Assembly: GCA_945859975.1 (NCBI GenBank)
Contig: CAMAPH010000014.1
Coordinates: 1 to 63,084, forward strand
Direction of reading: 5' to 3'
DNA from: Chthonomonas calidirosea
Lineage (GTDB): Bacteria > Armatimonadota > Fimbriimonadia > Fimbriimonadales > Fimbriimonadaceae
DNA length: 63,084 bases
Part shown: positions 1-6,000 of the stretch, in pieces
How the letters are laid out: each line of letters begins with the position of its first letter
Position numbering within the stretch: the first letter of the stretch is position 1
Program-made: the position numbers

Positions 1-3000
1 CACACGCAGGGGCTCTGTGAGGCGTATCCAAAAGGTCGCTCGTCCGGCCAACGTGGATCCATTGTGTACCACCTACCGGCAACCGGATCAAGCACCCGCG
101 CCCGGACGTAAAGCCGCCTCGAAGTATCGAAGTGGTAACCCCAAGTACCTCCGTACCCCCAAGGCGTGTTGTTCACGCCTACGGACAACCGAGTCTCCCC
201 GTAAGGCCAGTACCAAGCATCGTAAACCTCGTTCCCACTTGCATCCAGAACCTTCACCACTGAACCCAGCGTATCTCGCACCAAAAGCGACTCGCTGCCG
301 CCGGTCTTAGAATCCAAAATCTGCGCGTCGACGGTACTGAAAGTAGTCACATCACTCGGAGTTCGGGATTGCAGATAGTCGCTACCGTCCCAAACGAAGG
401 TCGTTCGCGTACCCCCGACCTCCAAGAACCGACGCATCCCGTCTGCCCAATAGGCCAGCGTAGACCGAGCCCCGCCCGGATCAATCGCCGTCCGCATCCG
501 GTTCTCGTAGTCATATGCATATGTAGTCCGAGACCCACCTGCATTCATCGCCGTCTGGTTTCCGTTCGCATCAAAGGTGTAAGTAGAAACCACCGCCCCC
601 TCGACCGAAGTCACCAACCGCGAACCCGCGTTGTAAGTCATCGTCTCCGAACTCGACCCAGCCCCGACCCCGGTAGGGTTCAAAGAAGGTAGCCAGGCAT
701 TGAAAATGCCTGGAGATCCAACCCGACCCGCAAAAGTCCAAGTCGCCCCGCGACCCCCGCGCGAACTGAAACCACCGACCACACCGCCATTGTAAGGCAA
801 GTTCCGCTTCTTTGAGGAGTCAAATCTCAAAAAATCCGCGTTTGAAAGCAAATCAGGACGGCTGCCGTTCCCTTGCTCACTCGTCTCGGGTGATGCGAGC
901 CAGGAAAACAATCAGACTGGCCAATTCCGAAGTGAGTCGTCTTGAGCTAGGTTTTCTATCTGAATGGGGCATTTTCGTTCAAAAAGCGTCGAAAACGTTT
1001 CACTCAGAGGCAAACAAGACGTTCGATCGGGATAATGAAATCGTGGTTGTCGAATTTTCGGTAGGGAATTTCAGGTCCATCAGTGCCGAACAAACGCTGT
1101 CGTTCGAAGCTGCAAACGGAGAGAGCCTTTCTGACATGCTCATTACCGATCCGAGCCGGCCAGACGATCCGCTCCTCCCATCACTCTTTCTTTTTGGGGG
1201 CAACGCAAGCGGCAAGACAAACATCTGCAAGGCGATTCAAGCTGTTCGCGACCTGACCATGTTCAGCGCGACGATGCTAAATCGGGGGCAAGCCATTCCT
1301 CAAATCGAACCCAATCGATTAGTCGCGAACCTCGCGGACCAACCGTCCTCCTTCGGCATCAAGCTCCTGTTAAACGGAGAGCTCTGGGACTACCGAATCC
1401 AAGTGGATTCAACCTCGGTGCGCAACGAAAGCCTGCACCGAAAGGCAAATTCACCCAAGGCCCGATGGAGCGAGGTCTTCACGAGAACCAACGGAGATAA
1501 ATCAAGTTGGGTCGGAAACGCGCCCCGCCTAAACCGCACGTTCTTCGAGTCGGTCCGGGAGAACTGCTCCGTTCTCAGCAAAGCCGCTGCCGAGGACATC
1601 GCCGCCGTCCTGCCCGTGTATGACTACATTTCCAACATCCGAATTCGAAATCTGGCCAATCCGCCACTCGATGTAGTTGAGAAAGCGATCGAATCGAGCG
1701 AGAACGATCCCGCATTGTTTCAGGCCTTGGCAAGGATCGTGGCCTGCGCAGATATTCAGGTCAACGAAATTCAGATCGATGAGAAAGAACTGGCTGTTGA
1801 CGAAGTGCCAGACTGGCTGAGGGCTTTTAGTGCTTACGCTACAGAGAATGAGCCTAGCCCAAAGATTTCTGCTCACAAATTGAAGTTTCTTATCAATCGA
1901 GATGATGGGGCCGAAGTTGGATTCGAACTTCAAGACCTTTCAGATGGAACGGTGCGATTCCTAGCCCTCGTGATCAACATCCTTCAAGCCCTGAAAGACG
2001 GCTCACTTCTCGTGATGGATGAGTTCGATGCCTCGCTCCACACGCTGCTCGCCCTTGCGGTTCGGGACCTCCTGACCGATTCTGATCTGAACAAAAACGG
2101 CGCACAATTCATTGCGGTTACCCACAGCGATGCTTTGCTAGATTCAAGTCGGCTGCGGCGAGACCAAATCGTGGCGATTAACCGCCTCGATGGTATCGGC
2201 ACGACATGGTGGGCACTTTCCGAGCTAGATCGCAAACCGAAGAAGGATGAGTCGTTCCAGCGACGATACTTAAATGGAGGCTACGGAGGCGTTCCCAGAA
2301 TCGCCGACCTTCGGGCGCATGTTCTAGCTGCTCTTCGGGGTGCTGGTGGCACGTAGGGGACTCCGGATTGTACGGCCACCGATCGCCATTGGCTTGGTGG
2401 TCGAAGGGGAGAAGCGAGAGGCGCGCTACTTTGAGCAAGCGGTTCTGAACCGAACCTGTGTTGCCAGTTGGACTCTTCACAGTGCAAACGGTGGCGATCC
2501 AACGAGCCTGTACACTAAATCCCTCGCAATTGCAAATGACCTTGATCAAGTTTTTATCGTTGCCGATGCCGATCGATGTCCTCCAAACTGTTCGGAAAGC
2601 GAGGCAGAGAATTGGGAAAGGCTCCGTGACCTCTGCAAGGGTCCAGACTTTCACTTGATTTTGACGTTTCCTTGCGTAGAGGCATGGTTCCTCATGCACT
2701 TCACCGACGATTTCCCGAGCGTGCCGCTAGGTGAGCCAGGAAGATACTCAGGCTTCTGCGATCCATTCAAGCAGGAACTCAAGCTCTGGTACCCGAATCT
2801 TGATCGACGTCCCGTCGAAGACTGGGCAAACTTGCGCCCACTCTTGGCCGACGCCGTAGTCAGGAGTAGGGCAAGTACGTCGAAGAAGCTCAAGCCCGCC
2901 GTGTGGAGCGAGATGCACCTTCTTATGAAAGAACTTGGTCATTGCTAGTACGAGCCATCTCAAAGACCAATCCAAACAACCCGGTACATCCCCGTCCAGT

Positions 3001-6000
3001 GGCTCACCCGTCCCGGGTGACACCGCACAGCCAAAGCTCGGAACAAAGCCCAAATCTCCCGACCCCGGTAGGGGTCAAAGAAGGTAGCCAGGCATTGAAA
3101 ATGCCTGGACAGCCAACCCGCCCCGCAAAAGTCCGAGGAGCCAAGCGACCCCCGCGCGGCCACAAACCCCCGCCACCCCCACCGTCGTAGCGCACCCCCC
3201 ATCAACCAAAGAGCCGCATCGTCCCCAAAACAAACCCGAACCCCCGAACAAACCCGAACAAACCCGAACCCAAAAAAGTTGGTTGACTTTCCGCCGCACA
3301 AGCACCTATCAGCTAGATGAAGCCCAAACGCCAAAGCGAGATTCGGACGGACCGAAAGCGGCACGAGGAAATTTAATTTACAATCGTCGCCAAGGCGGGA
3401 GCATTTATAAATAAATTTTCGGGACGACCAACGATCGGAATCGAGGGGACGATCAAGTGTGCGAAGGGAGAAAAAGAAACAGGCCGAAAGGCATGCGAGC
3501 CTCGCGTCTTCGCCACGCAGGGCAACGCAAAGCCATTCAAGGCCATTCAAAGCGCTCCCAAAAAGGCTGTAATTAATTAATCGGCCTGGGGGGGAAGCGT
3601 TAATTAATTCCGCCCGGCCACGGTCAAGGCGTTCAACAAACGGCCTAGAAGGAGAGACTCCGCAGCGGAGCCATACAAGGCCATTCAGAGCCACCCAAGG
3701 CCACACAAGGCAAAAAGAGTGGCCCGCTCGGAGGGATTCGAACCCCCGACCCTCGGTTCCGAAGACCGATGCTCTATCCACTGAGCTACGAACGGGTGGA
3801 GTGAGATAATACCCCGGAAAAATCACACTCGTAAACCCCGAACCGGGTTACAATCAACTCCCCATGCGCGTTGAGGAACTCATTCCGCTCCATAGTATCG
3901 AGGCCGAAATGGGCGTGCTGGGATCGATGCTGCTCTCCGAGCGCGCCGCCGACCAGGCCGCCAACATCGTCGTCGAAGAAGATTTCTACCGACCCGCCCA
4001 CCGCCTCATCTTCCGCGCCATGCTTCAACTCCTGAAGCAAAACCAGGCCATCGACTTCCTCACCCTCAAGGCCGAACTCGTCGCCCGAGGCGACCTCGTC
4101 GATGCCGGCGGAGAAAACTACCTCCTCCAGATCGCCGAGTTCGTCCCCAGCCCGTCGAACGTCGACTACTACGCCGGCATCGTTGTCGACCGAGCCCGAC
4201 TTAGAAAACTCGAAGACGCCGGAAGAAACATCGTCGGCCTCGTCCACGACCCGGACCAAGGGGACGCCGAAGACAAAGTCGACAAAGCCGAACAACTCGT
4301 CTTCGAAATCGGAAAACGCGGACTCGGAAACTACTTCAAGCCCGTCTCCAGCCTCGCCCGCGAATTCTTCCTCGACGTCGACAAAGTCTTCGAAAGCAAA
4401 AAGCCCCTCAGCGGCCTCAAGGTCGGCTTCTTCGATCTCGATGACCTCACCACCGGTTTCAACGGCGGCGACCTCATCATCATCGGCGCCCGCCCCGCCA
4501 TGGGCAAAACCTCGCTGGTCCTCGACTTCGCCCTAAACGTCGCCCGGGCCCTCGAAAGGGAAGAGAAGCGCGGCGCCGTCGCCTTCTTCTCGCTAGAAAT
4601 GTCCGGCCTTCAGCTGGCCCAAAGAATGGTCTCCATGCTCAGCGGCCTCAGCATGCGAATCCTGCGGCAAGACAAAGAGCTCACCGACAACGACTACTTG
4701 CGACTCTCCGAAGCCTGCGACGAGCTCTACGCGCTGCCCATCTTCATCGACGACAACGCCGAACTCTCGCCGCTCGACATGCGCGGAAAATGCCGCCGCC
4801 TAAAGGCCGAACACGGTCTCTCGCTCGTAATCGTCGACTACCTGCAGCTCATGCGGGGAAGTAAGAAAACCGAAAACCGCGTCAACGAAATCTCCGAAAT
4901 CGCCCGCGCCTGCAAGCGCATGGCCAAGGAGCTCGAGGTCCCGGTAATTGCCTTGTCGCAGCTATCCCGATCCGTCGAGTCCCGCGAAGACAAACGCCCC
5001 CAGCTCAGCGACCTTCGAGAGTCGGGCTCCATCGAAGCCGAAGCCGACATGGTCCTCCTCCTCCACCGAAAGAGCTACTACGACGCCAAGGCCCAAAACC
5101 GAAAGGAAGTCGAAAACTACGACGAAGTGCAGGTAGCCGACATCATTGTCGCCAAGAACCGAAACGGCCCCACGAAAACCGTGAAGCTAGGCTTCCAGCC
5201 GTCGTTCTCTCGCTACCGCAACCTCTCAACCGAAGTCGATTACGACGACGACTAGACCCGGTTTTTACCGGGCCTTGTCTGTCAATCCGGGCCAGTTGTC
5301 GGTCCGGAACGGGAAAGCCGGCAGCCCCGAAGCGTTCACCAAGTTCACTTCCGGATCCATATCCCAAGCGTATCGAGCCGAAACCGGGTTCGGTACCGAG
5401 CTTGATCTCAGCACAATCGCATTGTCCTGAATGGTCGCATCCGCCCAGTAGAACTTGCGGTCGGCACCGGCAATGCTGAAGCTCTTCGGCGCCTTGCCAT
5501 CCACGGTTCGCAACCCAGCCGCATGAGAGAACCGAAGCGTGATCGATCCGGTCTTTGCTTCCATCTTGCTAAACATCGGTCCGTAGTACTCAAGCTTCTT
5601 GCGGTAAGTCTGCGCCAGCGCAACTCCGGCTAATCGGTAGCCAACATCCCGCTTGTTGCGAGGGTGAATATCCTTGCTGTCGCCGATGTCGATCGCCGTC
5701 GCCATTCCGGTGTTCTTCAGCGAAAGCGCCATCGCCTGCGCCTCGCGAAGCTCGGCCCAACCGCTCTCCGTCGGCGTCGCAGACCGGCTCTGATAGTTGG
5801 CCAGCTGAACAAACAGGAATGGGAAGTCTCCCTGGCCAAACCGATTGCGCCAGTCTTCAATCATGCTGCGGAACAGCGATCGGTACTGGAATGCCCGGTC
5901 CGCGTTCGATTCGCCCTGGTACCAAATCGCTCCGCGAACACCATATGGCACCAACGGCGCAATCATGCCGTTGTAAAGACTCGCGGGTGCCCAAGGATTC

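Follow-up and report, generated by a model that had tools for sequence, protein, structure and literature searches.

In Neisseria, NIME arrays (dRS3 plus RS repeats) and minimal mobile elements have been proposed, in the sections of PMC1797815 that describe them, as a recombination substrate for incoming DNA, and in its passages on REP function PMC3733652 reports roles of these sequences in termination and mRNA stability. In Pseudomonas aeruginosa, varied defense systems fill the same slot between conserved genes (the cDHS, as treated in part of PMC10250203). The region analyzed here, which lies in a stretch of 63,084 nt (the window) on contig C14 of a genome in 101 contigs (G000), is a hot spot within a system of mosaic intergenic repeats that is specific to its lineage. 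At roughly even odds (a probability of about 0.5), we read it as a scaffold of the NIME/BIME kind that would act both as an anchor for homologous recombination and as transcription punctuation. The repeats form a stable scaffold at hot spots of the chromosome in which genes for anti-phage defense and toxins get swapped, much as at the Neisseria arrays.

The resemblance to NIME arrays and minimal mobile elements, within the sections of PMC1797815 concerned, is one of organization. Short non-coding repeats of several families are joined into arrays, the unit count at one locus varies among strains, the adjoining genes are variable and include restriction systems and silent toxin/adhesin cassettes, and the site has no dedicated recombinase. 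The sequences, however, are not alike (nothing in the window matches the dRS3 pattern), copies here number in the tens rather than the hundreds, the eight modules follow one fixed, polar grammar, and the host lineage belongs to the Armatimonadota and comes from lake water; natural transformation is not known for it.

As with the REP/BIME sequences and their RAYT (REPIN–RAYT) covered in parts of PMC2817692 and PMC3733652, module R is a short extragenic palindrome with GTAG at its stem foot that combines with other motifs into mosaics and flanks a single Y1 transposase gene, here in both orientations. Instead of more than 100 copies, each genome has only ~15 REPs, nearly all of which, outside the RAYT locus, are co-oriented and tied to Bb within a larger unit. 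The RAYT involvement suggested by the survey holds for the 53-nt REP part only, and the seven other modules have no link to RAYT; R is a canonical REP, probably spread by the single RAYT. As at the cDHS, many kinds of defense system occupy the same chromosomal slot in related strains; here, unlike at the cDHS, several hot spots of a single genome have a common non-coding scaffold.

A mosaic of eight modules in fixed order

Two modules, B and A, had been distinguished by the survey. Both are real and lineage-specific, but both are parts of a larger mosaic, in which eight modules keep one order: T hairpin, R, Bb, F, P, H2, W, and H1 (Table 1). R, a GTAG-tagged REP pair, is common to the modules and the single RAYT. 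T, R, Bb, and F make up a unit of ~280 nt, which also occurs in tandem arrays without cargo; in the closed relative G014 such arrays, with a period of 280–285 nt, lie at 816.5–817.4, 1700.3–1701.0, and 1864.1–1864.5 kb. The whole mosaic of ~620 nt is found without cargo at 2990–3615 of the window and in G045, the third genome that carries the modules (L049 8077–8575). At the same locus, the number of units varies from 1 to 3.5 among relatives.

Table 1. Features of the eight-module mosaic and its neighbors in the window
Feature	Position	Strand	Basis or description
rhs (YD-repeat) gene 3' fragment	3..662	-	PF05593 RHS_repeat, 1.2e-6
R1 REP doublet	663..715	+	hairpin 1 GACCCCGGTAGGGTTC; hairpin 2 CCAGGCATTGAAAATGCCTGG, GTAG immediately before hairpin 2
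Bb1, then degenerate F tail	716..870	+	conserved body with small hairpin CGCGACCCCCGCGCG; alignments, module map
T1 hairpin	875..897	+	GCTCACTCGTCTCGGGTGA; first module of next unit; 10 T copies in G000
abiLi-like AAA ATPase	812..2356	+	PF13304 AAA_21, 6.8e-29; PADLOC AbiLi, 5.4e-67; 812 is the longest-ORF start
abiLii/RloB-like partner	2340..2948	+	PF13707 RloB, 2.9e-15; PADLOC AbiLii, 5.6e-14
T2 hairpin	2999..3022	+	opens complete ~280-nt unit, 2998-3272
R2 REP doublet	3058..3110	+	same module family as R1
Bb2	3111..3197	+	alignment, module map
F	3222..3275	+	CCCGAAC repeats, 10-nt period (other strand GTTCGG)
P, promoter-like	3283..3322	+	TTGACT-N18-TATCAG in window, TATAAG in most copies; directed towards H1
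H2, second AT-rich hairpin	3365..3425	+	GC top, then T run; 7 copies; terminator-like
W	3515..3561	+	GCCAnnCAAG repeats, 10-nt period; second block 3669-3711
H1, core of module A	3562..3615	-	AATTAATTAA arms, conserved loop CGTTCCCCCCCAGG
tRNA-Arg(TCG)	3720..3795	-	conserved flank; dnaB next, 3864-5255

The rhs fragment is truncated on its 5' side exactly at the start of the first B copy, and at its other end it leaves the contig into C87 (positions 1–149 of the window are identical to C87 5559–5707). Homologous rhs sequence in G045 matches the window up to 644–659 but, unlike in the window, is not followed by a B module. The AbiL cassette begins ~18 nt past T1, with a left edge at 915/916 that is also present in two other lake runs; judged from where its domain starts, abiLi probably begins near 1041. 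T-A/C-G exchanges occur in the T stem among its G000 copies, an alignment of 8 copies of H2 shows the hairpin preserved but no wider structure, and F without the rest is found in a small number of additional genus genomes.

Going by sequence resemblance, P would probably act in addition as a promoter, and T, R, and H2 as 3'-end hairpins, which would insulate acquired genes from the tRNA and core genes. A promoter scan of the window did not flag P. In G014, P (TTGACT-N18-TATAAG) immediately precedes the ATG of an AAA_25 gene at two loci (L012 11988 and L013 11790). It is possible, though doubtful, that the modules only punctuate transcription and RNA, P as a promoter and the hairpins T, R, and H2 by termination or stabilization, and that they have no part in recombination; selection would hold them beside foreign genes and tRNAs, and turnover would go by way of core flanks or other routes. 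Besides the position of P, this possibility draws on the T and R hairpins that lie behind cassette 3' ends on either strand, on the GC-topped hairpin and T run of H2, on the REP roles in the passages of PMC3733652 cited above, and on the orthologous R+Bb core, in which the window and metagenome contig L072 are 93% identical, compared with 86.6% in the flanking DNA. But gene-free tandem arrays of 3–4 units are hard to explain by regulation, partial units flank cargo as direct repeats, and the modules form the ends of synteny breaks and of a duplicated AAA_25+H1 segment.

The AAA_25 gene also bears on a quite improbable alternative, that the mosaic is a decayed small mobile or replicating element with B and H1 as its ends, which formerly had an AAA_25-wHTH gene behind P that has since been lost from most copies. 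Four islands, two in G014 and one each in G000 and G045, have P–AAA_25–H1 at their A edge; close AAA_25 orthologues (86–96%) occur only in the three module genomes, with distant homologues in 4 of 43 others; and the phased 10-nt repeats and AT-rich palindromes presumably resemble origin or binding regions. However, the gene is present at just 1–2 of ~15 H1 sites per genome, and the three genomes are sisters, so that a shared distribution is expected by descent. Moreover, the 70 nt from P to H2 are, by eye, unlike the gene, and the protein has no named family in PADLOC or NCBIfam. In G021, a homologue adjoins a type III restriction system and is not near any module, and AAA_25 may therefore be an ordinary island gene.

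Copies, orientation, and swapped cargo

A blastn search of all G000 contigs with window 655–850 found 10 of the 11 long B copies that had been counted (two each on C14, C8, and C66, and one each on C57, C10, C1, and, on the minus strand, C34). The eleventh, placed at C8 57981, is a degenerate copy (57993–58302) that lacks the REP part. The same search found five additional copies of ~50 nt on C58, the sequence also seen in R1, which flank the only ORF with a Y1_Tnp match in G000 (PF01797, 1.5e-21; one match). The two B copies in the window (663–799 and 3058–3194) are 83% identical over 137 nt, and about half of the copies agree fully over a block of ~30 nt.

Most other descriptive claims of the survey stand. 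The palindrome part of A matches the 18 places reported, 15 of them by a strict pattern. The order B(+)..A(-) recurs in all five same-contig pairs of G000 and at all six B loci of G014. Four of the 15 strict A cores lie 34–126 nt behind a tRNA 3' end on the same strand (Arg, Val, Ala, and Glu). Compensatory changes preserve the hairpins: in 23 copies 88.5% of cells are paired, versus 25–48% with slid partners, four pairs are changed on both sides, and the observed covariation score was reached by 0 of 500 shuffles. An Rfam search of window 1–6000 at E<=10 returned only the tRNA and one chance match. In viral contigs, the REP motif had 0 matches and the A 17-mer two, both lacking the palindrome. 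Among the 46 genomes of the genus set (G000 and 45 others), long B copies occur in two besides G000, and these three are sister lineages of lake Fimbriimonadaceae; the REP motif is also present in records of two other species in the genome_contigs collection.

As had been claimed, the modules lie at islands with a gene content that varies from one relative to another and in many cases consists of defense genes, according to PADLOC, Pfam, and comparison of the relatives. The scaffold of the tRNA-Arg locus is retained at orthologous identity in four lineages that differ in gene content. Between C87-type core and tRNA-Arg/dnaB, G000 has the rhs fragment, B1, AbiL, and B2; G014 has a NAD-binding protein, HEPN, GmrSD, a methylase, 3.5 units, and zf-CHY; and in L072 an rhs fragment and B1 are followed by an unknown protein of 1257 aa and then by one partial and one full unit. 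In G045, the interval from a glycosyltransferase gene to Bb' has no cargo. The C10/C27 locus carries TIR genes in G014 versus a type ISP restriction enzyme in G045, and 1.7 kb of cargo lies between B and Bb' at the C8 locus in G000 and G014, with none in G045. In G014, PADLOC identifies NsnA-like GmrSD plus methylase, IetA/IetS, ThsB-like TIR, and TIR-TM; Pfam identifies the type ISP enzyme of G045 and Cas9/Cas1/Cas2 on C66. Cargo ORFs are biased towards one strand. In the one case followed of cargo thought to have moved to another A/B site, the match is explained by rhs core paralogy.

In G014, each of the six B loci touches a segment, 1.5 kb or longer, that is specific to this genome, versus only 11.9% of control positions in 400 kb of evenly spaced DNA. 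The only two module sites in this control DNA are also at or near lineage-specific segments, and 9 of its 11 variable segments have no module.

Junctions and the route of exchange

The survey had described islands bounded by B and A, with homology breaking at the module and an arrangement like that of an integron array. This reading is supported only in part. Variable DNA flanks B on both sides, including between B and the conserved flank, and B is thus not an outer border. Junctions between modules and cargo are scattered, from 3112 to 3270 on one side and at 2966, 3118–3125, 3177, 3228, or H1 alone on the other, a pattern that a single crossover site would not produce. These observations, together with the cargo-less tandem units and the lack of a clean excision joint in four runs, also speak against integron-like exchange.

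Clusters of attC sites without an integrase are known as CALIN arrays. Like these and integrons, the region is an array in which copies of a structured non-coding repeat set off one cassette from the next; most of the cargo is co-oriented, and the array has no integrase. A dedicated, integron-like cassette-capture platform, in which the unit or H1 would undergo site-specific or single-strand recombination, nevertheless seems unlikely. Such capture could be the work of RAYT on the REP hairpins, of a Xer-type recombinase, or of an enzyme from an element absent here. The fixed B(+)..A(-) order and the preserved hairpins are consistent with it, as are the single-cassette slots between units (window, C66, C8, L072, and L009), a right cargo edge that recurs at 3118–3125, just past the REP pair (C8/L011 locus, L072, and L045), and the H1 loop, whose sequence is conserved in the manner of a binding site. 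REPs, moreover, did move, since a REP cluster in G045 is absent from the same G000 site. Against this, junction positions are otherwise heterogeneous. B copies group by orthologous locus (0.89–0.95 identity versus 0.70–0.85 for paralogues) and have therefore been in place since the lineages split; likewise, 11 of 14 G014 H1 sites have flanks matching a G000 H1 site. Y1 transposases are present in 40 of the 46 genus genomes, the modules in only three. As the survey had stated, G000 has no integron-type integrase; its two tyrosine recombinases are on C1, ~25 kb from the closest module locus, and on C11, where a scan found no module. No attC-like fold spans the whole unit (z = -2.0 and -1.45), no tRNA direct repeat was found, units also stand in cassette-free tandem, and the AbiL cassette, unlike those of integrons, comprises an operon of two genes in the opposite orientation.

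In our preferred reading, the eight modules are a vertically inherited non-coding scaffold, beside and between which defense systems, rhs toxin fragments, and unknown genes are replaced over time; the route, we infer, is mainly ordinary homologous recombination. DNA of relatives would pair with the conserved scaffold and core flanks, and the interval would be exchanged; unequal crossing-over between the ~280-nt units would add or remove units and unit-flanked cassettes. In keeping with this, three B copies share the same 80–110 nt of rhs sequence at their edge, which indicates spread with flanking DNA rather than precise transposition. No recombination event was observed directly, and several points weigh against this reading. 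First, paralogous modules are 70–85% identical, which makes for poor RecA pairing, the ~30-nt block excepted. Second, exchange at a single locus requires core flanks only, so that the modules may be bystanders. Third, most variable segments of the control DNA (9 of 11) have no module. Fourth, plain homologous recombination does not explain the one orientation at all six G014 loci or the strand bias of the cargo. The direct repeats of Bb that flank cargo at C8, L011, and L072, on the other hand, fit recombination within units.

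A composite scaffold of eight modules

When pieces of window 2990-3615 are mapped onto the draft genome G000 (3.12 Mb in 101 contigs, 56.7% G+C, the window being the entire contig C14), eight short modules keep one order at about 20 loci: T, R, Bb, F, P, H2, W and H1. T is a GC hairpin with 10 copies, and R is a 53-nt hairpin pair with GTAG at the foot of the second hairpin; R is the sole module also present at the locus of the RAYT, the single Y1 transposase gene of G000. Bb is ~85 nt long, and F and W are arrays with a 10-nt period, of CCCGAAC and GCCAnnCAAG repeats, respectively. 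P contains TTGACT-N18-TATAAG in most copies, H2 is an AT-rich, GC-topped hairpin with a T run, and H1 is an AT palindrome around the conserved loop CGTTCCCCCCCAGG. In all H1 copies, stop codons occur in each of the three frames of the arms, TTAATTAATTAA (window 3570-3606), and, because the arms are palindromic, on both strands, so that translation reading across H1 would end. In Xer/dif modules, an inverted pair of 28-nt dif-like sites brackets each module; the arms of H1 and of H2 are separated by 17-20 nt rather than by 6.

The first four modules form a unit of ~280 nt (window 2998-3272), which in G014, a closed relative, stands in tandem with periods of 280-285 nt and no gene between units. 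The complete mosaic without cargo occurs at window 2990-3615 and at L049 8077-8575 of G045, a third genome bearing the modules. What the survey had described as pairs of a REP-bearing module B (R plus Bb) and an AT-palindrome module A (core H1) is most simply explained as a single composite scaffold that holds genes, and this is enough by itself to account for the fixed order and polarity. The polarity holds in full, with B(+)..A(-) in all five same-contig pairs of G000 and at all six B loci of G014. The 18 A copies in G000 were likewise found again, 15 of them fitting a strict pattern, and in 4 of these 15 a same-strand tRNA ends 34-126 nt before the core, in agreement with the tRNA links of the survey. 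For B, 10 of the 11 long copies listed for G000 stand and the eleventh is a degenerate copy; the 50-nt REP alone accounts for five more, around the only Y1 transposase ORF. R and Bb are separable: Bb occurs without R at C8 57993, L072 9007, L045 2199 and L009 12030, and R without Bb at RAYT loci and in one G045 cluster. A mosaic of different make-up, the fifth linked to a tRNA, lies at C1 92561-93051 of G000, where tRNA-Ala is followed by W, F, F, H2 and P, with no H1.

Neither a coding reading of B nor a large structured RNA in the unit holds up. B is not a coding sequence, as unit periods of 280-285 nt are not multiples of 3 and its hairpins covary; a minus-strand ORF stays open through B because that strand is A-poor and stop codons are rare. 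A large structured RNA was rejected because the unit folds with z = -2.0 and -1.45 and Rfam finds nothing, in agreement with the survey. For the P-H2 stretch the consensus energy is -3.4 kcal/mol, and covariation does not extend beyond the H2 hairpin.

Features of the window and of related loci
Feature	Position	Strand	Match or remark
rhs gene, 3' part	3-662	-	RHS_repeat 1.2e-6
B1	663 to ~870
AAA_21 ATPase, first gene of AbiL-type defence operon	812-2356	+	PADLOC AbiLi 5.4e-67
T1 small hairpin	875-897
RloB protein, second gene of AbiL-type defence operon	2340-2948	+	PADLOC AbiLii 5.6e-14
T2 hairpin	2999-3022
B2	3058 to ~3197
Non-coding stretch after B2, ending in AT palindrome H1	H1 3562-3615		420 nt
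tRNA-Arg	3720-3795	-	dnaB next to it
AAA_25-wHTH gene, G000	C44 19268-20272 (L006 5272-6273, -)
AAA_25-wHTH gene, G014	L012 12022-13017; L013 11825-12805
AAA_25-wHTH gene, G045	L094 9682-10686
REPs flanking the RAYT, G000	C58 10741(-), 10948(-), 11124(+), 11809(-), 12212(+)
RAYT, G000	C58 11313-11648		Y1_Tnp match

Cargo at the same loci in relatives

At the tRNA-Arg locus, four lineages share the scaffold and flanks and differ in contents. G000 has the rhs fragment, B1, AbiL and B2. G014, with a flank 92% identical, has NAD-binding, HEPN, GmrSD/NsnA-like and methylase genes, 3.5 units, zf-CHY and a partial unit. The near-identical metagenome contigs L072 and L073 (flank 86.6%) have the same rhs fragment, B1, a 1257-aa protein, a partial unit and a full unit; in G045 a glycosyltransferase gene directly precedes a partial unit. 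Unit number thus runs from a partial one in G045 through 2 in G000 and ~2.5 in L072 to 3.5 in G014. Other loci differ in the same way. The C10/C27 locus holds TIR genes in G014 versus a type ISP restriction enzyme in G045, the C8 locus has a 1.7-kb cargo in G000 and G014 and none in G045, and the C66/C44 locus carries Cas9-Cas1-Cas2 in G000 versus HEPN-TPR and ThsB-like TIR genes in G014. The type II-C-like Cas9 (1042 aa), Cas1 and Cas2 of G000 come directly after a B unit (C66 5599-10144, L005). G000 and G014 also differ over 2.8 kb at the C24-type locus, where an IetA/IetS pair (AAA ATPase and subtilase; L014 8252-11860) is the G014 cargo between B and H1.

Module loci are clearly enriched at lineage-specific DNA. 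All six G014 B loci touch G014-specific segments of at least 1.5 kb, versus 11.9% of positions in a control of 400 kb of evenly spaced DNA. The control contains only two module sites, both at or near G014-specific segments, and 9 of its 11 lineage-specific segments have no module. Judged by sequence comparison, the scaffold itself is old: B copies are 0.89-0.95 identical to orthologues in other genomes versus 0.70-0.85 to paralogues, and the flanks of 11 of 14 G014 H1 sites match a G000 H1 site. The AbiL cassette recurs at ~91-92% identity in contigs of two further lake runs, which come from other studies, and its left edge (915/916) is the same there, so cargo turnover occurs on the time scale of lineage splitting and is not rapid. 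Of the survey's cargo at other A/B sites, the one apparent case that was followed fell away. C34 29172-29568, 92% identical to G014 at ~2017 kb, reflects paralogy of the rhs core, the sequence being common to C1 1772-2170 and the main rhs gene; a tblastn search of G014 cargo against G000 gave only HEAT-repeat paralogues (42%, 88%) and spurious ORFs across B.

A 334-aa AAA_25 protein with a RecA fold and a C-terminal wHTH is encoded between cargo and H1 at some islands, directly behind P; its close orthologues (86-96%) occur only in the three module-bearing genomes and distant homologues in 4 of 43 others, and neither PADLOC nor NCBIfam names it. G000 (C34 17044-18558; L004 5645-7156) and G014 (L010 8557-10068) each have a 504-aa ORF adjoining an H1 site; neither ORF has a Pfam or PADLOC family, nor the G000 ORF one in NCBIfam. 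A 723-740-aa gene beside H1 (C93, G045) was considered as a mobility gene and rejected, being a glycosyltransferase-TPR gene.

REP hairpins, junctions and the route of exchange

R is a true REP. REPs that accompany a RAYT are described with a GTAG or CGTC tag at the stem foot (PMC3733652), and R shares with them a short hairpin-forming palindrome (20-40 nt) kept by compensatory change, a stem-foot tag, and flanking of the Y1 gene in both orientations. GGTAG stands directly 5' of CCAGG... in 21 of 23 aligned copies, helix 2 is paired in 96.6% of cells (23 copies), and pairs 44-55 and 45-54 are changed on both sides in 4 of the 23. The survey's claim of compensatory change is borne out across 23 B copies from two genomes: four pairs are changed at both positions, pairing in the three hairpins amounts to 88.5% of cells versus 25-48% with slid partners, and none of 500 shuffles attains the covariation score observed, in a test that counts related copies more than once, the variants representing at least two combinations. 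R differs in number, with only 15 matches in G000, from REPs as usually reported, at >100 copies per genome (PMC2817692). The narrow distribution also stands. Long B copies occur in two (G014, G045) of the 45 other genomes of the genus, the REP motif elsewhere in the genome collection only in two other species records, and in viral contigs it has no matches; two viral-contig matches to a 17-mer of A lack the palindrome and are not module A. An 860-nt segment with three REP pairs and no transposase gene (G045 L050 5615-6472) is absent at the same intergenic site of G000 (C1 30113-30122). This difference is an insertion/deletion polymorphism of a REP cluster and indicates past REP mobility.

How, then, is cargo exchanged? 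We propose that homologous recombination on the conserved scaffold and flanks would swap cargo and that unequal crossing-over between units would change their number; together, these would produce swapped cargo, direct Bb repeats around cargo and variable unit number. A second role of the modules is likely to be as promoter and 3'-end punctuation, since P lies directly 5' of the ATG of the AAA_25-wHTH gene at two G014 loci and T and R hairpins follow cassette ends; a promoter and terminator scan of the window flagged no module.

Alternatively, gene capture could take place at a dedicated, integrase-free platform whose two sides are the T-R-Bb-F unit and the P..H1 block; there, a hairpin-reading enzyme would insert and remove defence and toxin cassettes carrying a partial unit. 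We consider this improbable. The enzyme could be the single-copy RAYT, working on REP hairpins in single-stranded form, or the AAA_25-wHTH protein, and the platform, if real, would be a functional analogue of the integron made of REP-type parts. Three features, otherwise unexplained, speak for it: all six G014 B loci have the same orientation, most cargo ORFs in the raw ORF lists run from the A side to B, and the H1 loop is conserved in sequence. As to orientation relative to replication, dnaA lies at G014 position 361, and GC skew in 27 sampled windows is too noisy to place the terminus.

The junctions argue against such an enzyme and against the integron-like array that the survey had envisaged. 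On one side, modules meet cargo at unit positions 3112, 3158, 3172, 3177, 3185, 3194, 3203, 3210, 3252 and 3270, and on the other at 2966-2998, 3118-3125, 3177, 3228 or H1 alone, a spread that may partly reflect BLAST extension noise but offers no single fixed crossover point. One junction recurs, a right edge just behind R at 3118-3125 (the C8/L011 locus; L072 and L045, both at the tRNA-Arg locus). B had been taken as an island border; variable genes lie on both sides of B arrays, which makes it an internal spacer. Three B copies are bordered by the same 80-110 nt of rhs, and the G045 rhs sequence matches the window up to 644-659, where, unlike in the window, no B module comes next. This pattern suggests that the rhs/B junction formed once and then spread along with its flank.

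Enzymes and products point the same way. CALIN lack an integrase by definition. PF00589 (tyrosine recombinases) has only two matches in G000 (C1 67013, C11 30899), neither at a module locus, which agrees with the survey's view that an integron integrase is lacking. Y1 transposases do not track the modules, being present in 40 of 46 genomes of the genus. An attC site is a single imperfect palindrome across the repeat, with outer core sites that are conserved; folding of the unit, judged without an attC model, gives only short local hairpins and none of full length. An integrative island targeted to the tRNA would carry an integrase gene and, at the border away from the tRNA, a direct repeat of the tRNA 3' end; neither was found in the window, where the 24-nt tRNA 3' end occurs once (<=3 mismatches). 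The island continues into contig C87, as window 1-149 is identical to the contig end C87 5559-5707; C93 4563-4711 equals C63 1-149 likewise, and sharing exactly 149 identical bases indicates that the contigs of each pair adjoin. C87 has small ORFs behind the rhs fragment. No excision product was seen in contigs of four lake runs compared with window 1-8000, again as the survey had it. The joints 800>3229, 766>3062 and 3274>3567 were rejected as excision because their sides are short or they include additional letters, and because they correspond to paralogous arrangements of the modules; run X16 has no cover over 802-2937 and carries no weight here. Thus, an enzyme-driven platform specific to these modules seems unlikely, and we favor homologous recombination on an old scaffold.

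Related repeat systems

In our reading, the system corresponds to the intergenic mosaic elements and minimal mobile elements of Neisseria. In the account of PMC1797815, Neisseria has mosaic repeat arrays whose unit number varies at syntenic sites, which adjoin genes that vary, restriction systems and silent toxin cassettes among them, and which are proposed to raise recombination with incoming DNA. As in BIMEs and NIMEs, several repeat modules here form recurring arrays, with unit number varying at syntenic sites between relatives. The likeness is one of kind, not family, as the dRS3 repeat has no match in the window (<=1 mismatch). Our literature search found no paper on such repeats in Armatimonadota, which is no proof of absence; the present loci extend the NIME/BIME kind of repeat system to that phylum and connect a REP/RAYT system with islands of defence and rhs genes.

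Many defence hot spots lack mobility genes, and the way in which their content is exchanged is an open question. Here, several hot spots of one genome stand on one conserved non-coding scaffold with fixed polarity, which makes that question testable. The slots between units also offer candidates for new defence genes, such as that of the 1257-aa protein of L072 (4994-8767, -), which lacks any match in Pfam, PADLOC and NCBIfam and sits in the cassette slot that AbiL fills in G000.
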